Shown: positions 14,352 through 64,000, numbered from the stretch's first letter. The stretch: 64,000 bases of DNA from Cellulomonadaceae bacterium (GCA_031552185.1 JAVBMU010000024.1:185-64184); one strand, 5' to 3'. The notes: generated by a model from the sequence alone, not told the origin. Numbers and translations are program-made.

Positions 14352-16621
14352 ACCAGCTCCCTGGGGTCGAGTTGGGCGCGGACGGTCCCACCTTCCCGCC
14401 GGGCGGAGCGGACCGCCATCGACGCCGCGACCTGCGCGGCCAACGCCGCGCCCGCGGCGGCCGGGACGCGAATCGCGACCCGCACCTTCGGGTCCAGGGT
14501 GGGTTCGGCGGTGTGGACCTCGGTGGGTCCCAGGACGGCCTGCGGCGTGGCGAGTTCGATCCGGCCGACGACGGCGGCGACGGCCGCGCGGTCCCCCGTC
14601 ACCGCCGCCACCCGAACGGCCGGCGGCAGGCCGAGTTCGAGCCGGTCGGCGAATTCCCGGGCGGCCAGCCCGCCGGGATCCCACCGCACCAGGGCGCCGG
14701 TCGGCGCCGGGGCAGCGTCCCCGACCAACAGCACTTGGCCGCCGGCTGCCGCCGGCCGGACCAGGCTCGCCGCAGCGAGCCACCGGTGCAGTGCCCGGGT
14801 CGCCACGTCGAGCCCGACGGGCGTCGTGCTCGCCGCGGCGTCGAGCAGCAACGCGGCCGCGTAGCCCCCGGGTGCGGCGGGTTCGGCGCCCGGCGTCGCC
14901 ACCACCAGCGCGGGGCCGGCCGGTACCTCCGACAGCACGCCGCCGGGCGCGCTCGCGGCCGAGACCCGCACCGGCACGCCCGGGAAGGCACGGCCGAGTT
15001 CCTCGGCCGTGCGGGCCGAGCCGACCCGGATCGAGCGCAGGGCCGTCCCGCCGCAGGCCGGGCAGCTCCAGCCGCCGGGCAGCGCGCCGCACCAGGTGCA
15101 CTGCGGCCCGGCGCCGGCCGCGGGTACCGCGAGCGGGCCGTGGCAAACGGAGCACCGCGCCGGCTCCCGACAGCGGGCACAGGCCACCACGGGCAGGTAG
15201 CCGGCCCGCGGCACCTGCACCAGGACGGGCCCGGCGGCGAGGGCCGCCTTGGCCGCGCGCCAGGCCGCCGACGGGATCCGCGCGGCGGCGCCGGGACCCT
15301 CGTTGGCGAGTTCGGCTGAGGTCAGCGCCCGCACCCGCGGGCCGCGGGCGCGCAGAACGGCCCGGGGCGCGGCCAGTTCGCGCGCCCACCCGGATTCGAG
15401 CCGGGCCTGGGCCTCGACCGTGCGGCCGAGCGAACCGATCAGCATGGCGCACGTCTCCAGGCCGGCCCGAATCGCGAGCACATCCAGCGCCTGGGGGTAG
15501 GGCGCGCGCGGCTCGGTGAGCGTCTCCTCGCCGTCGTCCCACGTCACGATCAGGCCGAGGTCCCGGACGGGGGCGAAGGCGGCAGCCCGGGTGCCGACGA
15601 CGACGCGGGCGGAACCGCGCAGGGCGGCCAGGAAGGCCCGGTAGCGGGCCGCGGGACCCTGATCCGCGGTCAGCCTGACCACCGGCGCCGCTGTGTTCGA
15701 GCGGTCCGGCTCGGGCAGGCCGGCCGCGGCCAGGGCCGCGCAGACCCGCGCCACGTCGCGGGCATCCGGCACGACGACGAGCGCACCCCGGCCGCTGCGC
15801 ACCGCCACCGCGGCGGTTCCCGCGATCGCCGCTGCCCAATGCGGGCCGGCCGCGCCGGCCGCGCCCGGCAGGGCGGTCCACACCGCCCGCGGGGCGTGCC
15901 CGGCAGCGAGATGGGAAAGGAAGGCCGCCCCGCCCCGGTAGTCCGCCCACGCCGCGCCCGGCGTCGGCCCGGACCGGTCGCCGAACCCGGGAACGGATGC
16001 CGAATCGGGGCCGATCCGGGGCTCGGTCCCGGGCTCGGTCCCGGGCTCGACGGCCGGCGCCGCGGTCCCGGCCGCCTCGACCCGGGCATGCCGCGGCGGG
16101 ATTGCCAGCCGGAGCACGTCCGCGAGGGTGCCCGCGTACCGGTCCGCCACGGCCCGGGCCAGCCGCGCCACCTCGGGGGTCAGCACCGGTTCCGCCGAGA
16201 CGACCCGCCGCAGCGGCAGCAACCGACCCGGGTGCTCGCTCGCCGCCACCCGGGCCAGCAGGTAGCCGCCGACATCCTGCCCGCCGAACCGGGCCCGGAT
16301 CCGCACGCCGGGCTGCGCATCGGCGTCCATCGCGGCCGGAACGAGGTAATCGAAGACGCGGTCCAGGTGGGCAGGCTGCAGTTCGAGCGCGACCCGGGCG
16401 ATCGGGCGCTCGCCGGCGAGGGCCGGCTCGGCGCGGGACCGGGCGCCGGCCGCCCGGGCCTTCGCGGGCGGCGTCAATCCCGGCAACGCGCCCTGCGCCC
16501 CGATTTCGGTCGACGGCGGCCGCGCGGTGGTCGTTGCCGACGGCCCGGGCAACGTGCCCCGGCCGGCCTCGGTCGACGGCGCCGAGCCGGGCCGGGCGCC
16601 CGGGCCCGAACCGTCGCCCAT
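14348..16621 (-). CDS. priA: Primosomal protein N' (PriA)-like
   Basis: ORF 14348..16621. 'LDRVFDYLVP' 3'-DNA-binding-domain signature. Cys-rich zinc region 'CARCREPARCSVCHGPL...CTWCG...CPACGG'. Lies downstream of metK, as in other actinobacteria. Confidence 0.85.
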   Translation of the reverse strand: MGDGSGPGARPGSAPSTEAGRGTLPGPSATTTARPPSTEIGAQGALPGLTPPAKARAAGARSRAEPALAGERPIARVALELQPAHLDRVFDYLVPAAMDADAQPGVRIRARFGGQDVGGYLLARVAASEHPGRLLPLRRVVSAEPVLTPEVARLARAVADRYAGTLADVLRLAIPPRHARVEAAGTAAPAVEPGTEPGTEPRIGPDSASVPGFGDRSGPTPGAAWADYRGGAAFLSHLAAGHAPRAVWTALPGAAGAAGPHWAAAIAGTAAVAVRSGRGALVVVPDARDVARVCAALAAAGLPEPDRSNTAAPVVRLTADQGPAARYRAFLAALRGSARVVVGTRAAAFAPVRDLGLIVTWDDGEETLTEPRAPYPQALDVLAIRAGLETCAMLIGSLGRTVEAQARLESGWARELAAPRAVLRARGPRVRALTSAELANEGPGAAARIPSAAWRAAKAALAAGPVLVQVPRAGYLPVVACARCREPARCSVCHGPLAVPAAGAGPQCTWCGALPGGWSCPACGGTALRSIRVGSARTAEELGRAFPGVPVRVSAASAPGGVLSEVPAGPALVVATPGAEPAAPGGYAAALLLDAAASTTPVGLDVATRALHRWLAAASLVRPAAAGGQVLLVGDAAPAPTGALVRWDPGGLAAREFADRLELGLPPAVRVAAVTGDRAAVAAVVGRIELATPQAVLGPTEVHTAEPTLDPKVRVAIRVPAAAGAALAAQVAASMAVRSARREGGTVRAQLDPRELV

Positions 16622-30878: not shown

Positions 30879-32897
30879 TCACGGCCGCCGGCGGGCCGCG
30901 GCGACCAACGCCCGCAATCCCAGCAGGACGCCGATCAGCAGCGCCCCGGACCCGACGGCCTGGGTAAGCCGGACGTTCGGAGTCAACCTGATGCCCGTAT
31001 CGGCGGCCAGCAACACCACCCCGGCCACGATCGCGGCCACCGCCAGAAGGGTCACGATCGCGCGGGACACGAGTTCCTCGATGAAGGACCGATCCCCGGG
31101 ATCGGCCAGCAGCCGCACGTTCAGGCTGATCCGGCCCTGTTCGAGATCCCGGACCAGCCGGTCCACCCGGCGCGGCAGCCGGGCGAGCAGCGGCGTCAAC
31201 TCCACCAATTCCGCCACCGCGGCGTCCTTCAGTGCGGCCGGTTCGAGCGCGCGGCGCAGAATCGGGCGCGCCTCGCGCTGGGCGCCGGCGACGAGGTCGA
31301 ACGTCGGGTCGAGCAATCCGAGCGTGCCGTCGAGCGCTGCGATCGCGCGAAACGCGGCGGCGAGCTGGGCCGGCACCGCGAATTCGTGTCGCCGGAGCAA
31401 GCCGAGTACCGACCCCAACACCGCGGCGCCCCCCGCCGCTCCGGTGCCCGCCCCGAACCGGGCGACGATCTCGGCCACCGAACGGTTGAACTCCGCCTCC
31501 TCGAACCGCACCGGCCGATCGACCAGTTCCAGCAGCGCGTCGCCGACGACGGCGGCGTCCTGGCGTTGGAGCCCGTGCAGCAGCACCCCGAGCCATTGGC
31601 GCGACCCCGCGTCGAGCCGACCGACCGACCCGAAGTCGAGCAATGCCAACGTGTTCGAATCCACCAGCAGCACGTTCCCCGGATGCAGGTCCGCGTGGAA
31701 GGTGCCGGTCAGCAGGATCTGGGTCAGGCACTCATGCAGGAGCGCCGCGGCCAGCTCGGCCCGGTCCGTCACGCTCAGGGTGGCGATCCGGTCCGCGGCG
31801 CCACCGAGGGCCGGCCCCCGCACGCGTTCCATCACCAGCACCGTGGCGGAACTCAACTCGTCGATCACGGCCGGGATCTTGACCTGCGCCGTACCACCCA
31901 CGGCCACGTCCAGTCGGAGCGGGCCGAGGTCGAGCCGCCGGTGCTGAGCCGCCGCCTGGCCGGCCGCAACCACGCGCTGGTTCTGCGCCTCGACGCGATA
32001 GTCCAGTTCCTCGTGCAGCGAGGCCGCGAATCCCTCGGCGAGGTGGGCAATGCGGATCTCGCGCCCCCAGTTGGTGGCGCGCTGCGCCCAGCGGGCCATC
32101 CGAAGCAGGATCTGCATGTCCACCCGCACCTGTTCGGCGGCGCCCGGGCGCTGCACCTTGACCACGACGTCGCGCCCATCGTGCAGCCGCGCGGCATACA
32201 CCTGAGCGACCGATGCGGCCGCGATCGGCTCGGGGTCGAACGTCGCGAAGACGGCGTCGACCGGTCGCCCGAGGCCCGCCTCCACCGCCGGGGCGATCTC
32301 CGCCCAGCCCACGACGTCGACGGCGGTCTGCAGCGTCGACAACTCGCGGACGAATTCCGCCGGCAGCAGATCCGGGCGGGTGGACGCCAACTGCCCGATC
32401 TTGACGAACGTCACCCCGGCATCGACCAGCGCGCCGCGCAGCGCGACGGCGACTTCTGCCGTCGCCGAGTGCCGGCGGGCGCGCAGCCCGCCCAGCCCGT
32501 GGCGAATAAAGATGCCGGCGATCTGCGCATACCGTCGTGAATGTCGACGGTTGGCCCGCCGGCGGCGAAGCCAATCGGCCGGCGTCGGGACGGTCCCGGT
32601 CGGCACGACGATCTCGGCCAGGACCAGGAGCGCGACCCCGCCGACAAAGATCCAACCGAAGGTCAGCGCGACGATGACCAGGCTCGGCGCGGGATCGGCC
32701 AGGACCTCGGCCTCGTCGGTCGGCAACTCCGTGCTGCGCGCGACCCCATTGACGACCGGCGACGTAATACCCAACAGGATCAGGCCGACGACGAGTGATC
32801 GGATCCAGCCGATCGGCGCGGCCAGCATCCGGCGGGCCACCGCAGCCGCGGCCCATGCGGTCGCCAACGTGGTCACTGCGACGAGAATCACCGTCAT
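30879..32897 (-). CDS. ABC1/UbiB-family atypical kinase with N- and C-terminal TM segments
   Basis: Last 672 aa of ORF 30879..33503. 'FVKIGQLASTRPDLLP', 'IAAASVAQVYAARL', 'VVVKVQRPG', 'FHADLHPGNVLL'. ATG at 32897 with GGAGGG upstream. Confidence 0.85.
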   Translation of the reverse strand: MTVILVAVTTLATAWAAAAVARRMLAAPIGWIRSLVVGLILLGITSPVVNGVARSTELPTDEAEVLADPAPSLVIVALTFGWIFVGGVALLVLAEIVVPTGTVPTPADWLRRRRANRRHSRRYAQIAGIFIRHGLGGLRARRHSATAEVAVALRGALVDAGVTFVKIGQLASTRPDLLPAEFVRELSTLQTAVDVVGWAEIAPAVEAGLGRPVDAVFATFDPEPIAAASVAQVYAARLHDGRDVVVKVQRPGAAEQVRVDMQILLRMARWAQRATNWGREIRIAHLAEGFAASLHEELDYRVEAQNQRVVAAGQAAAQHRRLDLGPLRLDVAVGGTAQVKIPAVIDELSSATVLVMERVRGPALGGAADRIATLSVTDRAELAAALLHECLTQILLTGTFHADLHPGNVLLVDSNTLALLDFGSVGRLDAGSRQWLGVLLHGLQRQDAAVVGDALLELVDRPVRFEEAEFNRSVAEIVARFGAGTGAAGGAAVLGSVLGLLRRHEFAVPAQLAAAFRAIAALDGTLGLLDPTFDLVAGAQREARPILRRALEPAALKDAAVAELVELTPLLARLPRRVDRLVRDLEQGRISLNVRLLADPGDRSFIEELVSRAIVTLLAVAAIVAGVVLLAADTGIRLTPNVRLTQAVGSGALLIGVLLGLRALVAAARRRP

Positions 32898-54239: not shown

Positions 54240-55688
54240 CTACCCGTCGGCGCCGCCGAGGATCCGGCGGACCCGGTCCAGTCGTTCGGCGACCTGCCGC
54301 TCATAACCGCGGTCGCTGGGCTCGTAGTAGCGGGCGCCGCGCAGCGTGTCCGGCAGGTACTGCTGGGCGGCGACGGCGTGTGGCTCGTCGTGGGCGTAGA
54401 CGTACCCCTGCCCGTGGCCGAGCCGCTGCGCCCCGGCGTAACTCGAATCGCGCAGGTGGGCGGGCACGACGCCGGCCCGGCCCGCCCGGACATCGGCCAG
54501 AGCCGCGTCGATCCCTCGGTAGGCCGCGTTGGACTTGGGCGCTGTCGCGACGTGCACCACCGCCTCGGCGAGGACGATCCGCCCCTCCGGCATCCCGATC
54601 AGCGCGACCGCCTGGGCCGCCGCCACCGCGGTCTGCAGCGCCGACGGATCCGCCAGCCCGACCTCCTCAGCGGCGGCGATGACGATCCGCCGGGCGATGA
54701 ACCGGGGGTCCTCCCCCGCCGCCACCATCCGGGCGAGGTAATGCAGGGCGGCGTCGACGTCGGAGCCGCGCATCGACTTGATGAAGGCGGAGACGACGTC
54801 GTAATGCTGGTCCCCGTCCCGGTCGTAGCGCAGCGCGGTCACGTCCGCGGCGCGCGCGACCGCTTCGACATCGATCACCGGCCCCACGGCATCCGCGGGC
54901 TCGGCTGCATCCGCGGGCTCGGCGGCATCCGCGCCGCTCGCGGGCTTCGCGGGCTTCGCGCGTGCTTCCGAGAGCACTGCGCCGGCGGCCGCCTCCAACA
55001 CCGTCAGCGCCTTGCGGGCGTCCCCGCCCGCCACGCGGACCACCTGATCCTCGGCCTCCGCGGTGAGCCGGACCGTGCCCGCGAGGCCGCGCGGGTCCGC
55101 CGCGGCCCGGCGCACCAGTTCGCGCACATGCTCGGGCTCGAGCGGGCGCAGGGTGAGCAGCAGCGATCGGGACAGCAGCGGCGCGATCACCGCGAAGCTC
55201 GGGTTCTCCGTGGTGGCCGCGACGAGCGTCACCCACCGGTTCTCGACCGAGGGCAGCAACGCGTCCTGCTGCGTCTTGGAGAACCGGTGCACCTCGTCGA
55301 TGAACAACACGGTCTCCGGTCCACCGGTCGCCAGCCGGCGGCGGGCGTCGTCGATGACGGCCCGCACCTCCTTCACGCCGGCGGTCACCGCGGACAACTC
55401 GACGAAGCGCCGGCCCGAGGTCGCGGCGATCAGGTAGGCGAGCGTCGTCTTGCCCGTGCCGGGCGGACCCCAGAGCAACACCGAACCGGGCGCGGCCCGC
55501 TCCGCGCCGTCGTCGGCGGGCTCGACCAACCGCCGCAGGGGCGCGCCCGGTGCCAGCAGATGCTCCTGCCCCGCGACTTCGGCCGGGCTCGCCGGGCGCA
55601 TGCGCACGGCGAGCGGGGCCGCCGCCCGCGCCGCCGGCGGACCGAGCGGATCGGTCAGGGCGGCGTCGAACAGATCACCGACGGTCAT
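54240..55688 (-). CDS. rarA: Replication-associated recombination protein A (AAA+ ATPase)
   Basis: ORF 54240..55688. '[13 protein letters not shown]', '[19 protein letters not shown]', '[26 protein letters not shown]'. Confidence 0.92.
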
Positions 55689-55770
55689 GGATCGAGCCTA
55701 CGCACCGCCGCCGCCGGTCGGGGCCGAAGGGGTCCTGACAACGGCCATTCGGTGGTGCCATGCTTTTCCC

Positions 55771-58014
55771 GTGTTCAACAGCCTCGGCCGCGGCGTCGCG
55801 CGCCACCCCTGGATCACCGTTGCCGCGTGGCTCGTGCTGACGATCGTCGGCTTCTCCTTTGCGGTGCTCGGCCTTCGCGGGGACGGGCTTTTCGACCGGG
55901 TCACCACCGGCGCACCGCTGGTCCCCGGCTCGGACAGCAAGCGCGCCGCCGACATTCTGTCCGACGAGCGCATCCTCGGGCCGCGGATCACCCTCCTGGT
56001 GGAAGGGGTCGACGCGCGGGACCCCGATCTGGTGGCGGCCATGGCCGACATCAACCGGGACCTCGAGGCGATCCCCGACGCCCAGCCGCCGGTCGACCCG
56101 TACGTTATCCCCGAGGGCCTCGACGACCCGCGGGCGGCGGCCATGATCGCCGCGGACGGGCGTGGTTTCGTCGCGTACGTGGACGTCGACGCCGGCCTCG
56201 GCGACCAGGAGGGCGCAACGGCGCACACCGTCGCCGAGCGACTGCGCGATGTCCCAAGCGAGTTGCGGGCCGAGGTGCCCTCTGCCGCCCGGGCGGAGGG
56301 GATCGTCAGTTCGAATGCGCTGATCGTCTCCGAGATCACCGACCAGGTGCGGGCCGATCTGGAGACGGGCGAGGTCTTCTCGTTGCCGGTCGCGCTGCTC
56401 GTGATGGTGATCGTATTCGGTGGGTTCCTCGCCGCCGGGATGCCGATGTTCGGGGCGTTCGCGTCGATCGGCGCGGGGCTCGGCGCGCTGCTCGGCATCA
56501 CCTATGTGATGGATGTCGACGCGTCCGTGGTCAACGTGGTGACCGTGCTCGGCCTCGGGCTGTCGATCGACTACGGCCTGCTCGTCGTCTCCCGCTATCG
56601 GGAGGAGTTACACCGCCTGGTCGCCGCGGGCGCGGACCCGCCGGCGGCGGTGCGAACCGGCGGCGACGGCGTCGTCGACGCCGCGTTGGTGCGCACCATG
56701 AGCACGGCGGGGCGCACGATCACCTTCTCCGCCCTGACCGTGGCCATCGCGATCTCCGGGCTGTTGGTCTTCCGGCCGCCGATCCTGCGGTCCATCGGCG
56801 CGGGCGCCCTCGCCGTCGTGCTGATCGCCTTCCTGACGGCGCTGACGCTGGTGCCCGCGGTGCTGCATCTGACGGGTCGGCGGCTCGCCCGGCCGAGCCG
56901 GCTCGCCGGGGTCCCCGGGATCCGGCGGATGCTCGCCCGGACGGCGGACGTCCAGTCCGACGACGGCGCGCTTGCCCGGCTCGCGGCCTGGGTGCAGCGG
57001 CGGCCCTGGCCGGTGCTGATCGGCACCTCGGCGATCCTGCTGGTGCTTGCCGCCCCGGTGCTCAGCCTGCAAATGCGCAACACCGGCCTCGACCTGCTGC
57101 CCCGCGACTCGGACCAGCGTGCGTTCGTGACCGCGCTCGGCGAACAGTATCCGGCCATGCGCTGGCCGCAGATCGAGATCGTGGCGAAGGCCGACCCGGC
57201 GACGGCGCAGGCGTGGTCCGCCGCCCTGAACGGGCTGGACCATGTCGAGCAGGTCGACGCTCCGCAGCAGACCGGGGAGTACGTGGCGATCGGCGTGCAC
57301 ACCGACTCGCCCGATGCAGGCGGCCCCGAGGCCGTCGCGCTGGTGCACGAGATCCGGGGTCTACAGCCCGATTTCCAGATGTGGGTCGGCGGGCAGGCGG
57401 CCGGTCAGATCGACTTCCTCGACGCCCTCGCCCAACGCGTGTGGTGGGCCGTCGCGATCGTCGTCGTCGCCGTGCTCGCGCTGCTGTTCCTGATGACCGG
57501 ATCCGTGGTGATCCCGATCAAGACGCTGCTGACGAACGCCCTGTCGCTCTGCGCCTCGCTCGGGGTTCTGGTCTGGGCCTTCCAGTTCGGGCATCTGCAG
57601 GGCGTGCTCGGCTTCACTCCGGTTGGCGGGATCGAGACCTACGTCGTCGCGCTGTTCGTCGCCTTCTCGTTCGGGCTGGCGATGGACTACGAAGTCTTCC
57701 TGCTCGCCCGGGTCAAGGAACTGCACGACAGCGGGCTGAGCAACGACGACGCCATTCGGATCGGCCTGCAACGTTCCGGCCGGATCATTACGTCCGCGGC
57801 GGCGATCATCATCGTCGTCTTCGCGGGCTTCATGCTCGGCGAGCTGCTGGTGATCAAGGAGGTCGGCTTCGCGCTCGCCGTCGCGGTGGCGATCGACGCG
57901 ACCATCGTTCGGTTGCTGCTCGTCCCGGCGACGATGACGCTGCTGGGCAACGTCAACTGGTGGGCGCCGAAGCCGCTTCGCCGCCTCTACGACCGGCTCG
58001 AGTTCAGCCATTAG
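55771..58014 (+). CDS. MMPL/RND-superfamily membrane transporter
   Basis: ORF 55450..58014 trimmed to GTG 55771 ('VFNSLGRGVARHPWITVAAWLVL'). Two blocks of about 6 TM helices, each followed by a soluble loop, with 'GLSIDYGLLVVSRYREE' and 'GLAMDYEVFLLARVKE'. Confidence 0.85.
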   Translation: MFNSLGRGVARHPWITVAAWLVLTIVGFSFAVLGLRGDGLFDRVTTGAPLVPGSDSKRAADILSDERILGPRITLLVEGVDARDPDLVAAMADINRDLEAIPDAQPPVDPYVIPEGLDDPRAAAMIAADGRGFVAYVDVDAGLGDQEGATAHTVAERLRDVPSELRAEVPSAARAEGIVSSNALIVSEITDQVRADLETGEVFSLPVALLVMVIVFGGFLAAGMPMFGAFASIGAGLGALLGITYVMDVDASVVNVVTVLGLGLSIDYGLLVVSRYREELHRLVAAGADPPAAVRTGGDGVVDAALVRTMSTAGRTITFSALTVAIAISGLLVFRPPILRSIGAGALAVVLIAFLTALTLVPAVLHLTGRRLARPSRLAGVPGIRRMLARTADVQSDDGALARLAAWVQRRPWPVLIGTSAILLVLAAPVLSLQMRNTGLDLLPRDSDQRAFVTALGEQYPAMRWPQIEIVAKADPATAQAWSAALNGLDHVEQVDAPQQTGEYVAIGVHTDSPDAGGPEAVALVHEIRGLQPDFQMWVGGQAAGQIDFLDALAQRVWWAVAIVVVAVLALLFLMTGSVVIPIKTLLTNALSLCASLGVLVWAFQFGHLQGVLGFTPVGGIETYVVALFVAFSFGLAMDYEVFLLARVKELHDSGLSNDDAIRIGLQRSGRIITSAAAIIIVVFAGFMLGELLVIKEVGFALAVAVAIDATIVRLLLVPATMTLLGNVNWWAPKPLRRLYDRLEFSH

Positions 58015-58232: not shown

Positions 58233-60005
58233 TTAGGAATCACTCGTCCGGGGCTTGGCGTCGACGCCGGCCTCCTTGCGCTGTTCGGGGGTGATCGGCG
58301 CGGGCGCCTGAGTGAGCGGGTCGTAGCCGCCGCCCGACTTCGGGAACGCGATCACGTCCCGGATCGACTCCGCCCCGGTGAGTAGGGCGACGATCCGGTC
58401 CCAGCCGAAGGCGATCCCGCCGTGCGGCGGCGCGCCGTACTGGAACGCGTCCAACAGGAATCCGAACTTTTCCTGCGCCTCGGCCTCGCCGATCCCCATC
58501 ACCTCGAACACGCGCCGCTGCACGTCCCTGCGGTGGATACGGATCGAACCGCCGCCGATCTCGTTGCCGTTGCAGACGATGTCGTACGCATAGGCGAGGG
58601 CCTCGCCGGGCTCGGCCTCGAACCGGTCGATCCACTGCGGCGTCGGCGCGGTGAACGCGTGGTGCACTGCGGTCCAGGCGCCGCCGCCGACGGCGACGTC
58701 ATCGTCCTCGCCGACCGGCTTGAACAGGGGGGCGTCCACGACCCAGACGAACGACCACGCGTCGTCGTCGATCTGGCCGGTGCGCCGGGCGATCTCGAGG
58801 CGCGCGGCGCCCAGCAGCGCCCGGGTCTCGGTGCTGCGGCCGGCGCCGAAGAAGACCGCGTCCCCCGGCTGGGCGCCGGTCGCCGCGGCCAGGCCGGAGC
58901 GCTCGGCGTCGGACAGGTTCTTGGCCACCGGGCCGCCGAGCTCACCGTTCTCGCCGATCGTGACGTACGCGAGACCCTTGGCCCCGCGGGACTTCGCCCA
59001 GTCCTGCCACGCGTCGAACTGGCGACGCGGCTGCGCGGCGCCGCCGGGCATGACGACAGACCCGACATGCTGCGCCTGGAAGACGCGGAACGGCGTGTCC
59101 TTGAAGTACTCGGTGAGGTCGACCAGTTCGTTGCCGAAGCGCAGGTCGGGCTTGTCCGTGCCGTAGCGGCGCATCGCCTCCGCGTACGTCATCCGCGGGA
59201 TGGGCATCTCGATCCGATGCCCGATCAGCTCCCACAGGGCGACCAGCACCTGTTCCGCAACGGCGATCACGTCGTCCTGCTCGACGAAGCTCATCTCGAT
59301 GTCGAGCTGAGTGAACTCCGGCTGGCGGTCGGCGCGGAAGTCCTCATCGCGGTAGCAGCGGGCGATCTGGTAATACCGCTCCATCCCGGCCACCATGAGC
59401 AATTGCTTGAACAGCTGCGGGGACTGCGGCAGCGCGTACCACGAGCCCGGGGCGAGGCGGGCCGGGACCAAGAAGTCGCGGGCACCCTCCGGAGTGGACC
59501 GCGTCAGCGTCGGCGTCTCGATCTCGACGAAGCCCGCCGCGTCCAGGACGCGCCGCGCCGCCTGGTTCACCTTCGCCCGCAGGCGCAGCGCCTGCGCCAT
59601 GCGCGGCCGGCGGATGTCGAGGTACCGGTGCCGCAACCGCGCCTCCTCGCCGACGGTTTCGGTCCCGTCCAGCGCGGTCGAGACCTGGAACGGCAGCGGC
59701 GCCGACTCGTTCAGCACGACGACGTCGCTTGCCACGACCTCGATCTCACCGGTCGCCAGGTGCGGGTTGGCGTTGCCCTCGGGGCGGCGCGAGATCTCGC
59801 CCGTGACCTGGAGGACGAACTCGGAGCGCAGCGGGTGCGCGATGGCCTCGTCCCGGATCACCACCTGCGCGATGCCGGAGGCGTCCCGAAGGTCGATGAA
59901 GGCCACTCCCCCGTGATCGCGACGGCGGTCCACCCAACCCGTGAGGGTGACGGTCTGACCGATGTGGTCGGCTCGCAACGAGCCGGCCGTCCGGGTGCGC
60001 AGCAC
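58233..60005 (-). CDS. aspS: Aspartate--tRNA ligase
   Basis: Last 590 aa of ORF 58233..60746. '[22 protein letters not shown]', '[14 protein letters not shown]', '[20 protein letters not shown]', 'GGGSIRIH'. Start at GTG 60005, with an alternative ATG at 60038. Confidence 0.95.
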
Positions 60006-60109
60006 GGAGGCGTCCTTTCGCAGGTGGAGGGTCCGCATGCGGATCGGACCCGGCGCGCGCCCTTGCCGACGGCGCGCCACGAGTCTAGTGGCCTTCGGCC
60101 GCGGGTCGC

Positions 60110-61432
60110 TCAGGCGAACGCTGCGACCGGCCCGGCGACCGGCGCAATCGGCGCGACGGTTGACGCAACGGTGGGCGCGACGGTTGACCCGCCCGGCGCG
60201 GTCAGCGCGGCGGTCGAGGCCGCGGCGCCCACCATGGACACCACGGTGGGCGCAGGCAGGATGGCGCAGTCGTGGCTGACGAAGCCGTTCGCAACGAAAT
60301 CCCCCGCTTGGGTTGACAGCCCGATCATCCGCCGGTCTCCGAGCGGTTCGATCCGCGCCACCCGGAATCCTGCGTTCGACCGCACGGCGCGGCCAACCGC
60401 GCGGTCTCGACCCGTGGCCGGCGCGAGCAGCGCAAGCAGACGGCTCCGATCGGCTCCGACGACCCGTACATCGTCGGCCGGACCCGCTCCCGAACCTGGT
60501 CTCAGCCCGGATCCCGGCAGGGTCCGGACACCGAGCCTGGCAAGGCTCGCCCGAACCTCTGCGGCCATGTCCTTGGTCCGGCAGCCGAACCGCACCGCGG
60601 CCCCGCCGAGGCCAGTCGCATCGAGCACTCCGGAGCAGAACCCGGCGGACCACTCCGCGCCGGGGTCGGCCGGCGTCGTGACGATCGCCCGGACGATGCC
60701 GTACTGGGAGGTGCCGCAGACCAAGCAGCCCACCGCCCGGGTGCACGGAGCACCGTCCTGACCGAACGGCCGCAACCGCGTCACGACGCCGAACTCGGCG
60801 AGGTAGTCCCGCGCCCTGGCCAGCGCCCGGAGATCCCCGTATGCGAGCCGAAGGACCGCCGGCCGGACCAGCCCGCGGCGCCGCGCACAGGCGCTCGCCC
60901 GGGGCGAGACGTGCGCCCTGATCAGCCCCGCCAGGTAGCCACTCGCGAACGCGTCCCGCCCCGACTCCGGCCTCGGGCGCAGGGGCAGCCCGCCGATGCC
61001 GCGGACCGCATTGCTCGGGGTCAGGTATGCCCGCCGCACCTCACCGGGACGGGCCGGAACGACGGCCTTCCAGCCACGGTCGGTGAGGAACCGGTGATCG
61101 GCGGCGGCCACGACGGATGTCCCGTCCGCCACGGTCAGCCGAAAGGCCGGGCACGTCCGCGTCCACCGGTCGAGGACCGTCGTCGCGACGTAGCGCCGGG
61201 TCCGACCGGCGTACTCGGTGCCCACGACGACGTCGCCCGCCTCGATCCGCGCCAGTGGCACCAATCGCCCGTCCGCGGTCAGGAGGAGAACGCCGGGATC
61301 AAGACAGGACGAGCGCGCGACCGCGCCGCCGCGCGCTTCCCCGTCGAGCCATGCCGCGCCCACTGCCCCGCTGCTTGCCGTGCCGCCGGATGATGTCGCC
61401 TCGTCCCGTCCCACCTGCATAGTCGAACACAT
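60110..61432 (-). CDS. Free-standing intein-like protein: Hint domain split by a degenerate double-LAGLIDADG homing-endonuclease-like insert
   Basis: ORF 60110..61900 trimmed to the region downstream of hisS, with ATG at 61432 or 61420. Intein block A '[21 protein letters not shown]', block B '[13 protein letters not shown]'. LAGLIDADG-like '[11 protein letters not shown]' and '[11 protein letters not shown]'. Blocks F/G '[19 protein letters not shown]|C'. The flanks of 38 and 52 aa are low complexity. Confidence 0.7.
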
Positions 61433-61438
61433 GTTCGA
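61423..61438. promoter_or_regulatory. Perfect actinobacterial LexA SOS box TCGAAC-ACAT-GTTCGA
   Basis: The palindrome is read directly. It lies 26 nt downstream of the hisS stop, overlaps the ATG at 61432 and sits 3 nt upstream of the ATG at 61420. A TTGCCA (-35-like) hexamer lies just upstream on the minus strand. Confidence 0.6.
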
Positions 61439-61463
61439 ACAATTGGCAAGGCCCTGCGATCGC

Positions 61464-62837
61464 TCACTGCTCGCTCGACGACGCGGGGACAACTCGCGGC
61501 CACAGGTCCGCCGCGGGCGGCGCCCACACCGCCGGGTCGGCGTCGACCTGCGCGCCGGACCGGATGTCCTTGACCTGGTGCGCGGCCTCGCCGGCGGACG
61601 GGAACCAGACGAATGGAATGCCCCGGCGGTCCGCGTGCCGGATCTGCTTGCCGAAGCGCGCCGCGCTCGGCGCCACCTCCACCGGCACGCCCCGCCCGCG
61701 CAACGCCGCGGCGACCGCCTCCGAGGCGGGCCGGGACCCCTCATCGGCCACCGCCACCAGCACCGCGCTCGGCACGGACCGGGTGGCCCGCACCAGGCCG
61801 GCGCCGAGCAACCGGGACACGAGCCGCGACACCCCGATCGACAGGCCGACCCCCGGATAGGTCGCGGTGCCCTCGGTGGCCAGCGTGTCGTACCGCCCAC
61901 CCGAGCAGATCGAGCCCAGCGACTCGTGGCCGACGAGCACCGTCTCGTAGACGGTCCCCGTGTAGTAGTCCAGCCCGCGGGCGATCTTGAGATCCGCGAG
62001 CACCGCGCCGGGCGCGCGCTCCCCGACCGCGGTGAGCAGCGCGGCCAGTTCCGCCAACCCCTGATCCATCAGAACCGACGCCACGCCGTGGCGCGCCGCC
62101 ACGCTGCGCACCCGATCGACGACCCGCAGGTCCGCCCCGCTGATCGACGCCAGTTCCAGGCACGCCTGCGCCTGCTGCTCGGTCGCGCCCGCGTGCGCCA
62201 CCAATGCCTCGGCGACGGCCTGCGGCCCGATCTTGTCCAACTTGTCGATCTCGCGCAGCACCGCATCGGGATCCGCCAGGCCGAGCCCGCGGTAGAACCC
62301 CTCGGCCACCCGGCGGTTATTCACCAGGATCCGAGCCTCGGGCATCCCGATCGGGCGCAGCGCAGCGAGCGCCGCGGCGATCACGAGCGCCACCTCAACC
62401 TCGACGTGATAGGGCAGCTCACCCGCGCCGACGACGTCGATATCGGCCTGGACGAATTCCCGGAACCGCCCTTCCTGGGGCCGTTCCCCGCGCCACACCT
62501 TCTGGATCTGATACCGCCGGAAGGGAAAGGTCAGGTGCCCGGCGTTCTCCAGCACGTAACGGGCGAAGGGGACCGTCAGATCGAAGTGCAGCCCGAGCGA
62601 GCGTTCGTCGCGCGCGGGGGCGGCGTCGTCGGCCTGCAACCGGTGCAGAACGTAGACCTCCTTGGACGTCTCGCCCTTGCGCAGGAGTTGGTCCAGTGGC
62701 TCCACGGCGCGCGTTTCGATCCCGGCGAATCCGTGCAACTCGAAGGTCCGTCGCAGCACATCCAGGACGTGCTGTTCCACGATCCGACCGTCGGGAAGCC
62801 ATTCGGGAAAACCGGAGAGAGGTGTCGGCCTGGCCAT
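61464..62837 (-). CDS. hisS: Histidine--tRNA ligase
   Basis: ORF 61464..62837. 'GFPEWLP', class II motif 2 'FRRYQIQKVWRGERPQEGRFREFVQADIDVVG', 'GGRYD', 'VGLSIGVSR'. Confidence 0.95.
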   Translation of the reverse strand: MARPTPLSGFPEWLPDGRIVEQHVLDVLRRTFELHGFAGIETRAVEPLDQLLRKGETSKEVYVLHRLQADDAAPARDERSLGLHFDLTVPFARYVLENAGHLTFPFRRYQIQKVWRGERPQEGRFREFVQADIDVVGAGELPYHVEVEVALVIAAALAALRPIGMPEARILVNNRRVAEGFYRGLGLADPDAVLREIDKLDKIGPQAVAEALVAHAGATEQQAQACLELASISGADLRVVDRVRSVAARHGVASVLMDQGLAELAALLTAVGERAPGAVLADLKIARGLDYYTGTVYETVLVGHESLGSICSGGRYDTLATEGTATYPGVGLSIGVSRLVSRLLGAGLVRATRSVPSAVLVAVADEGSRPASEAVAAALRGRGVPVEVAPSAARFGKQIRHADRRGIPFVWFPSAGEAAHQVKDIRSGAQVDADPAVWAPPAADLWPRVVPASSSEQ

Positions 62838-62901
62838 GGGACCCGATCCTTCCAGATCGGCCGGCGCTGGGCCGAACTGTTTGCGCGCCGGCCGGTTCGG
62901 G

Positions 62902-63615
62902 TCAGATCAGGCTCCGCAGGAAGGGGTTGACGCGGCGCTCCCGCGCCATGGTCGTCTCGGGTCCGTGCCCCGGCAGCACGCGCCATTCGTCCGGCAGGCC
63001 GCCGATGACGTCCCCCAACGTTCGGTTCATGGCGTCGCCGTCACCGCCGGGCAGGTCATAGCGACCGATGGTCCCGGCGAAAAGGACATCGCCCGTCAGG
63101 AGGGCACCGGACTCGGGCGTCCCGACGGCGTAGAGGGTCGAGCCCTCGGTGTGGCCCGGGGCGTGGATCGCGGTGAGTTCCACAGCCCCGAATCGCAGCG
63201 TTGTGGTGGCCGCCCCGGCGGCGATCGGCTGCACCACCGCGGGGGGCACGTAGGCGCCCGGGTCGATCCCCACCGCGCGCAGTTGGGCGTCCATCCCGTC
63301 GCCGCCGGGGCCGAACGCGATGGTCCCGAGCGGGTCGTCGAGCCGGTAGGCGTCGTCGGCGTGCACGACGAACGGAACCCCGGCCCGCGCACAGAGCGGT
63401 CCGGCATCCCAGGTGTGATCCGCGTGGCCGTGGGTGGCCAGCACCGCCCGGGGGGTCAGCCGCATGGCCGCGATCAGCAACTCGACCTCCGGCGCGACCC
63501 CCGCGCCGGCGTCGACGACGACGCACTCCGGTCCCACCACGACCAGATAGCAGTTGGTTCCGTAGAAGGGTGCGACGATGGCGCGGATGATCGGGGCCGG
63601 GCGTGAGGTGTCCAC
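62902..63615 (-). CDS. MBL-fold metallo-hydrolase (glyoxalase II-like)
   Basis: ORF 62902..63615. 'TNCYLV', 'ATHGHADH', 'HAPGHTEGS', 'GDVLFAGTIGR'. Confidence 0.85.
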   Translation of the reverse strand: MDTSRPAPIIRAIVAPFYGTNCYLVVVGPECVVVDAGAGVAPEVELLIAAMRLTPRAVLATHGHADHTWDAGPLCARAGVPFVVHADDAYRLDDPLGTIAFGPGGDGMDAQLRAVGIDPGAYVPPAVVQPIAAGAATTTLRFGAVELTAIHAPGHTEGSTLYAVGTPESGALLTGDVLFAGTIGRYDLPGGDGDAMNRTLGDVIGGLPDEWRVLPGHGPETTMARERRVNPFLRSLI

Positions 63616-63749
63616 ACCCGAAGGCTAGTCCGGCCGGAGGGAGCGCGAGGCGCGTCCAGATGCTGTCACGGTGCCTAGACTGTCCGTACCGACCGCGGTC
63701 GTTCCGCGGATTCCGCGCGCGCCCACGGGTGCATGAGCGAGGAGTTGCC

Positions 63750-63971
63750 ATGGTGAGGTCGAGTTGCCGGGGGCGGGCGGGCTTCGCCCTGCCGGTCGGC
63801 GCGCGACCGGCCCCGACGGCGGCCCTCCGCGGGATCCGGACCCGGCCGGGCGACGCCTGCGGCGTCGGCATCACGTTGGGCCTGGCGTCGGCCGGGCTGT
63901 CTCTGACCCGGAGCCCGGGCGGGCCTGCCGCCGCGGTCCTGGTCATCATCGAAGGAGTCAGTACCCCATGA
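63750..63971 (+). CDS. Possible small membrane protein (73 aa), uncertain
   Basis: In-frame ATG at 63750 within ORF 63603..63971, with GAGGAG 7 nt upstream. One hydrophobic segment 'GVGITLGLASAGLSL'. Its stop overlaps the next ATG (ATGA). The sequence is Arg/Gly/Pro-rich, so it may be spurious. Confidence 0.3.
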   Translation: MVRSSCRGRAGFALPVGARPAPTAALRGIRTRPGDACGVGITLGLASAGLSLTRSPGGPAAAVLVIIEGVSTP

Positions 63972-64000
63972 GCGATCCCACCGCGAACCTGGAGAACTCC
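63968..64000 (+). CDS. 5' end of an unidentified CDS running off the window
   Basis: ATG at 63968 with GAAGGAG about 10 nt upstream, translating 'MSDPTANLENS'. Too short to assign a function. Confidence 0.3.
   Translation, partial: MSDPTANLENS

Follow-up and report, generated by a model that had tools for sequence, protein, structure and literature searches.

A LexA-type operator ahead of an intein-only open reading frame in a Cellulomonadaceae bacterium: probable inheritance from an Rv2578c-family radical SAM gene

Why does a perfect SOS box stand directly ahead of an intein that has no host protein around it? The case is found in a 64,000-nucleotide stretch of DNA from a Cellulomonadaceae bacterium (GCA_031552185.1, JAVBMU010000024.1; the whole stretch is called the window here), in which an open reading frame (ORF) with Hint and LAGLIDADG features lies between hisS and aspS. 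A preliminary description, made from the sequence alone, took this arrangement to mean that an intein-derived protein is induced by DNA damage, and its authors knew of no SOS-regulated free-standing intein-like gene. We asked whether the box is a genuine operator, to which gene it belongs, and what the ORF behind it still is.

The operator and its putative promoter

The actinobacterial LexA consensus TCGAAC-N4-GTTCGA, which we took from PMC3381160, is matched without mismatch only once in the 64 kb, by TCGAACACATGTTCGA at 61423-61438 (12 of 12 specified positions; no strand assigned), and the preliminary description had given both the sequence and the position of this site exactly. Its argument that such a match is rarely produced by chance was likewise borne out: calculated from the base composition (73% GC), about 0.001 perfect boxes are expected per window, and none appeared in 100 dinucleotide-preserving shuffles of the window. 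With up to two mismatches allowed, 8 matches were observed versus 3.0 expected, and among these the perfect site alone is notable. A one-mismatch SOS-like site, TCGAACGTCGGGTCGA at 31297-31312, was dismissed; it lies within long ORFs on both strands and is probably a chance intragenic match.

On the minus strand, the region reads TTGCCA-ATTGT-box-CT-ATGCAG-GTG, with the GTG at 61412-61414. The -35-like hexamer TTGCCA, already pointed out in the preliminary description, occupies 61444-61449, 14 nt after the hisS stop codon and 5 nt upstream of the box. That description had also placed the box 26 nt after hisS; the two are indeed close, and the distance between the stop codon (61464-61466) and the box is 25 nt. 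An extended -10-like element, TGT-TCGACT (61421-61429, minus strand), follows, whose hexamer (61421-61426) begins within the SOS box and shares its final four bases, and relatives carry the same TCGAAT or TCGACT 17 nt after their -35 hexamers. The box is thereby placed between the TTGCCA and TCGACT hexamers of the putative promoter. A strict sigma-70 consensus scan of 59900-62000 reported no promoter, the -10-like TCGACT included; the window promoter was recognised by comparison with relatives alone, and it is from their layout that we infer TCGACT to be the -10 element.

The GTG at 61414 stands 6 nt after the -10-like hexamer and 8 nt after the box. We regard it as the probable start codon because orthologues start at the same distance of 6-8 nt, and orthologous promoters likewise speak against the two ATGs proposed earlier as starts, at 61432 (inside the box) and at 61420, the second of which was also chosen by automatic gene calling on a Logan contig. 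As the start codon follows only 6 nt downstream of the -10-like hexamer, the layout suggests a leaderless transcript, which would begin at the start codon itself, at G61414. Leaderless mRNAs are common in actinobacteria. The distance from TTGCCA to the GTG, 35 nt, is that of the M. tuberculosis Rv2578c promoter pattern, which begins 35 nt ahead of the start codon (PMC2703886).

The open reading frame behind the operator

The ORF (60110-61414, minus strand, 434 codons) derives from an intein and combines a Hint with a LAGLIDADG fold. Its central 346 codons (60269-61306) are recognisable as an intein relic by a match to NCBIfam NF038136, by alignments and by an AlphaFold model. NF038136 is the NCBIfam entry for intein-containing radical SAM proteins of the Rv2578c family. 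Of its 574 profile positions the ORF matches only 66-335, which make up the intein part, and it reaches 156 bits against a cut-off of 700; a Pfam scan of the ORF returned no match, PF04055 included, and tblastn of family proteins and exteins against the whole window recovered the intein part alone, with no significant extein match. All of the 43 protein homologues found are radical SAM proteins of 468-761 aa that contain this intein, and over the full intein the ORF is at most 39% identical to them. In the AlphaFold model (mean pLDDT 64), residues ~37-383 are predicted to form a Hint domain plus a LAGLIDADG domain, for which the best PDB matches are the homing-endonuclease inteins TliVMA, PI-SceI and PI-PfuI, and I-DmoI (TM-score 0.70, normalised to the I-DmoI chain length). 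Both flanks are predicted to be disordered, with a pLDDT of ~27 for the N-extein remnant.

Rather than lying in frame in a functional host protein, the intein has flanks of 36 and 52 residues without significant extein similarity. The N-extein remnant comprises codons 2-36 (61307-61411), versus 74 codons in C. fimi. The C-terminal tail (60110-60268) consists of the +1 Cys (60266-60268) and 51 Ala/Pro/Val/Thr-rich codons, together 52 codons in place of the ~280 codons of the radical SAM core, and of the stop codon (60110-60112). Short tandem repeats at 60123-60225 (period 7, GCGACCG; period 12, GGCGCGACGGTG and CGCGGTCAGCGC) encode STVAP/TVA-type repeats in this tail and look like slippage in non-constrained DNA, and its last ~30 nt can possibly be aligned with the 3' end of the orthologous gene (alignment A2). 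At the N terminus, an 'RWDG' match to the ancestral sequence in another frame could be taken as the trace of a 5-nt deletion, a reading on which we place no weight, since an ungapped alignment from the GTG start gives the same 13/18 identities.

In the family, the intein interrupts CxxxCxxC just before its third Cys (RGCxHACxY / C...SHN / CFARP; alignment A1). The window reads RGGAVARSS / C...SHD / CAILPAP at the same junctions, two of the three Fe-S cysteines being gone, and the ORF has neither the CxxxCxxC Fe-S/SAM motif nor the radical SAM core and curated-score match of the Rv2578c family. It does occupy the genomic slot that the family has in this clade, between hisS and aspS, behind an SOS promoter, and so is a remnant of an Rv2578c-family member and not itself a member.

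The intein part has diverged as well. It is on average 36% identical to 39 inteins of the family, which average 55% among themselves, and of the 93 positions conserved to 90% or more it is changed at 26 (family median 2, maximum 21). With residues counted from GTG 61414, these changes include G167A and D168H in the now degenerate LAGLIDADG-1 (60905-60940), L260C, A261S, D280T, D365G in block F, and N382D, by which the terminal His-Asn has become His-Asp (60269-60274); the columns of D365G and N382D are 100% conserved in the 39 relatives. A class 1 intein is still recognisable in C37 (Cys1, 61304-61306), H107 (block B), H381 (penultimate) and C383 (+1), all of which fall in invariant columns of the alignment and are retained, whereas the C-terminal Asn and the block F Asp, which the splicing steps require, are lost. 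Similarly, only one of the two LAGLIDADG motifs has kept its catalytic acidic residue, since motif 1 reads AH instead of GD and motif 2 (60611-60643) keeps D265.

Base composition points in the same direction. GC2 of the relic intein (0.61) exceeds the values of all 36 homologous inteins examined, which reach at most 0.573, and the contrast between GC3 and GC2 is ~0.2 in the relic versus 0.36-0.46 in the neighbouring genes. No relative more than 40% identical to the relic was found in the protein database, in genome_contigs or in metagenome_contigs, the best being 38-39% identical, and a C-extein directly follows the intein in all 113 comparable loci with enough flank, the window being the only extein-less case. 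Taken together, the extein loss, the divergent intein, the raised GC2 and the weak GC3-GC2 contrast indicate relaxed constraint, as in a pseudogene remnant, and the product of the ORF is probably non-functional.

Against these signs of decay have to be set the features that were kept. The open frame runs from the canonical start through the whole intein, which, unlike both exteins, is without large deletion, and long open frames are common at 73% GC. The -35 hexamer, operator, -10 hexamer and start codon are intact despite the heavily altered extein stub that adjoins them; a rough estimate of the probability that 12-18 promoter and operator positions survive unchanged under neutrality is ~0.1-0.2. 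This may be a sign that selection continues, acting in favour of an intein-derived protein made in the SOS response or on the repression of a strong promoter, or it could be due to chance.

The hisS-aspS slot in relatives and the spread of the operator

The gene upstream of the promoter, hisS (61464-62837, minus strand), is an ORF identified by its Pfam domains and is ~80% identical to Cellulomonas hisS. Through hisS we found four relatives for comparison, C. fimi CP110680 (L082) and three metagenome or Logan contigs (L084, L165 and L166), and in all four the order is MBL-hisS-(one opposite-strand gene)-radical SAM-aspS. The window has an MBL-fold gene (ORF, 62902-63615, minus strand) and aspS (ORF, 58233-60038, minus strand), the latter in the same position as aspS in the four relatives. 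Their radical SAM genes encode 355-390 aa without an intein, and the two of these proteins that were tested against the NF038135 'Rv2578c family' equivalog scored 509 and 491 against a cut-off of 430.

A perfect box, TCGAACACGTGTTCGA, stands 8 nt ahead of the radical SAM start in each of the four relatives, and a perfect box is present in all five Cellulomonas-like loci (the same four and L083). The relatives share a layout of TTGNNN, 5 nt, the box, AT or CT, 6 nt, and then GTG or ATG followed by CGN TGG GAC, so that the orthologues begin with M-R-W-D. The -10-like element in this layout, TCGAMT, overlaps the box, and the -35 hexamers, 5 nt from the box, are TTGACG in C. fimi, TTGCGC in L084 and L165, and TTGCCA in L166. 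This makes it likely, in our judgement, that the operator and promoter of the window are those of the radical SAM gene of the Rv2578c family found in the hisS-aspS slot of relatives.

The opposite-strand gene that separates hisS from the promoter of the radical SAM gene (L082, 6463-8268; L084, 6381-6998; L165, 3321-3938; L166, 5927-6451) varies, being TspO/MBR in three relatives and, in C. fimi, a 601-aa protein with a faint Peptidase_M11 match. The window has no such gene at 61439-61463, where hisS ends 14 nt before the -35 hexamer. On the far side of aspS and convergent with it, an 854-aa ORF (55450-58014, plus strand) reads like a multi-pass membrane protein, for which an MMPL type may be guessed from the sequence. 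The window has a single tRNA, tRNA-Ser(CGA) (15337-15436, minus strand), and an Rfam scan of the whole window at the gathering score found no family.

Of 79 genome loci in which homologues carry the intein, 64 have a box with up to two mismatches upstream of the intein, and 31 of these boxes are perfect. It is absent from the loci of other phyla in this set. Synteny with hisS and aspS is absent among the 80 intein-containing genome loci. Where shown, the box is found 130-290 nt before the intein, which is just ahead of the gene start, in the order TTGNNN-5 nt-box-start, and about 60 other actinobacterial loci with intein-containing versions have this same promoter layout. In the metagenome loci, a box with at most one mismatch falls in the upstream zone in 30 of 75 usable cases; the remainder of these loci holds three such matches in 322 kb.

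The layout is fixed in many genera (L001-L080, L082-L084, L165 and L166): the box overlaps a TCGAAT or TCGACT -10 element, the start codon follows 6-8 nt later, and the N terminus M-R-W-D/S/Q is strongly conserved in the Rv2578c-family genes. Such a layout, as far as it can be read from the sequences, implies leaderless, LexA-repressed transcripts across these genera. Lineages with the conserved box and layout are Lentzea, Dactylosporangium, Catellatospora, Microbacterium, Leucobacter, Amycolatopsis, Cellulomonas, Solirubrobacterales and Acidimicrobiia. In one Solirubrobacterales locus (L051), a perfect box is located downstream, 1966 nt after the start of the intein match, and may belong to a neighbouring gene; upstream, this locus has only a two-mismatch site, 737 nt away.

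These observations can be placed beside published LexA targets. In M. tuberculosis, the Rv2578c/Rv2579 site is LexA ChIP-seq peak 20 and shows RecA-dependent induction (Smollett et al. 2012, PMC3381160). Rv2578c resembles the window locus in its gene family (NF038135/NF038136), its operator consensus and its promoter-start distance of ~35 nt; however, M. tuberculosis has a one-mismatch box ahead of an intact, intein-less radical SAM gene, whereas the window has a perfect box and a destroyed host protein. Rv2578c also lies in the neighbourhood of hisS and aspS (Rv2580c and Rv2572c).

In S. venezuelae, LexA ChIP marks vnz_31145, a radical SAM gene, as a target, and mitomycin C induces it 20-fold (Stratton et al. 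2022, PMC9380542); SOS control of such radical SAM genes therefore extends across Actinomycetota. This spore-photoproduct lyase-like gene is a presumed member of the Rv2578c family; unlike the window locus, it is intact and has a degenerate box 61 nt upstream of its start. Rv2578c-family radical SAM proteins are themselves distant relatives of spore-photoproduct lyase and are annotated as 'DNA repair photolyase'. The NF038136 proteins share with the window ORF the intein insertion point, the Hint plus LAGLIDADG domains and, in actinobacterial members, the upstream SOS box, but they are 590-760 aa long with complete exteins, whereas the window ORF is without a radical SAM domain.

With the family already published as a LexA target, control of this locus by LexA is to be expected and does not constitute a new connection. 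Nor is an SOS-controlled intein new in itself, since the M. tuberculosis recA intein is LexA/SOS-controlled through its host gene (PMC11377839; PMC5238726). That intein is splicing-competent within a host protein of essential function, whereas the host protein in the window is gone.

Origin and fate of the locus

We consider it likely that the window holds an inherited operator, probably still bound by LexA, before a decaying intein-only pseudogene of an Rv2578c-family gene, LexA binding and induction being extrapolated from the orthologues. In this scenario, the 16-bp palindrome would be a LexA operator embedded in the promoter of the radical SAM gene; bound LexA would block RNA polymerase, and the RecA-stimulated cleavage of LexA after DNA damage would release transcription. 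In a Cellulomonadaceae-like Micrococcales lineage, the intein is likely to have homed into this resident gene, which then carried it before the third Cys of CxxxCxxC, and subsequently either splicing failed or the gene became dispensable. A failure of splicing would inactivate the enzyme, as the intein interrupts the Fe-S motif. The exteins would then have been deleted down to short disordered stubs, and the intein itself would be drifting, its terminal Asn having turned into Asp and the Asp residues of LAGLIDADG-1 and block F having been lost. What would be left is an intact SOS promoter/operator that drives a 434-codon ORF encoding an orphan, probably non-functional intein.

On this account, DNA damage is likely to induce transcription of the ORF behind the operator. 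The preliminary view of a DNA-damage-inducible, intein-derived ORF holds as regards the genuine LexA-type operator in the promoter and the Hint/LAGLIDADG nature of the ORF, and its inducibility is carried over from the orthologues. The proposed novelty of a link between the SOS response and a free-standing intein finds no support, as the operator appears to be inherited from the Rv2578c-family gene in the same slot, a published member of the LexA regulon.

A different scenario would be domestication: stripped of its exteins, the Hint-LAGLIDADG protein would be functional on its own and induced in the SOS response, perhaps as a factor that binds or nicks DNA, and selection for it would have retained the promoter and operator. 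Such a protein could be encoded here: with promoter, operator and start codon intact, the frame stays open and in frame from the conserved start to the end of the intein; folding is still predicted for both the Hint and the LAGLIDADG domain; and Cys1, the His of block B, the penultimate His and the Asp of LAGLIDADG-2 are kept. That both exteins were trimmed and the intein was not could also hint at selection. However, at 73% GC frames as long as this one can be open by chance, and the changes at 26 of 93 family-conserved positions (among them the Gly-Asp of LAGLIDADG-1, the Asp of block F and the terminal Asn), the raised GC2 and the weakened codon-position signal all count against a maintained protein. 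The ORF is, moreover, unrecognised by any Pfam model and has no second example among the 113 comparable loci or in the protein search, and we regard its domestication as improbable.

A precedent for such a fate is yeast HO, a regulated, free-standing protein that derives from a VMA1-type LAGLIDADG intein. Like the window ORF, HO and the bacterial intein-like (BIL) domains are Hint-domain proteins outside the classical extein context, and BIL structures are among the weak fold matches of the AlphaFold model. In contrast to the window ORF, which is without relatives of the same architecture and has lost key catalytic residues, HO and BIL are conserved functional families. A literature search on orphan or extein-less inteins found nothing.

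Still less probable, in our estimation, is that the operator and promoter were kept for the sake of the neighbours, either as an SOS-inducible boost to aspS or as a LexA roadblock to read-through from hisS. The geometry would permit this, in that the three genes lie on the same strand, the hisS stop is 14 nt from the -35 hexamer, the relic stop is 71 nt from the aspS start, and no terminator-like sites occur in 59900-62000, so that none separates hisS, the relic and aspS. However, aspS keeps a conserved -10-like element of its own downstream of the relic, TAGACT at 60082-60087 (minus strand) in the 71-nt spacer (60039-60109), for which L084 has TAGACT and C. fimi has TAGGAT at the equivalent place, ~43 nt before the ATG (alignment A2). 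This element is probably the aspS promoter, and aspS would thus not need the SOS promoter. In the relatives, furthermore, the opposite-strand gene parts hisS from this promoter, which argues that a hisS-aspS coupling is not ancestral, and we know of no SOS control of aspS.

That the palindrome is a chance occurrence, or that an assembly artefact has produced a falsely truncated gene, is hardly credible, given the empty shuffles and the same position and layout of the box in orthologues on the one hand and, on the other, a second assembly (Logan contig L081) that is identical over 60159-64000 and across both extein-intein junctions, although it may share the same or related reads. Nothing specific speaks for either idea beyond the fact that the window seems to be a metagenome-type contig of ~64.7 kb.

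The SOS control of this locus, in the inherited-operator reading, comes from a known LexA regulon gene, and reporting it as a new SOS-intein connection would be unwarranted. For the family as a whole, the conservation of the box and of a leaderless-type promoter across actinobacterial lineages supports a conserved role in the response to DNA damage for the uncharacterised Rv2578c enzymes. Were the intein domesticated after all, it would be a bacterial counterpart of HO-type domestication that is switched by DNA damage, with an intein outliving its host gene. As a decaying relic, the locus would offer a rare snapshot of an unusual end to the intein life cycle, in which the host gene is lost around the intein rather than the intein from its host, possibly because the intein ceased to splice within the Fe-S motif and so inactivated the enzyme. 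Given close relatives, this locus could show how long a LexA operator lasts without a useful gene behind it.
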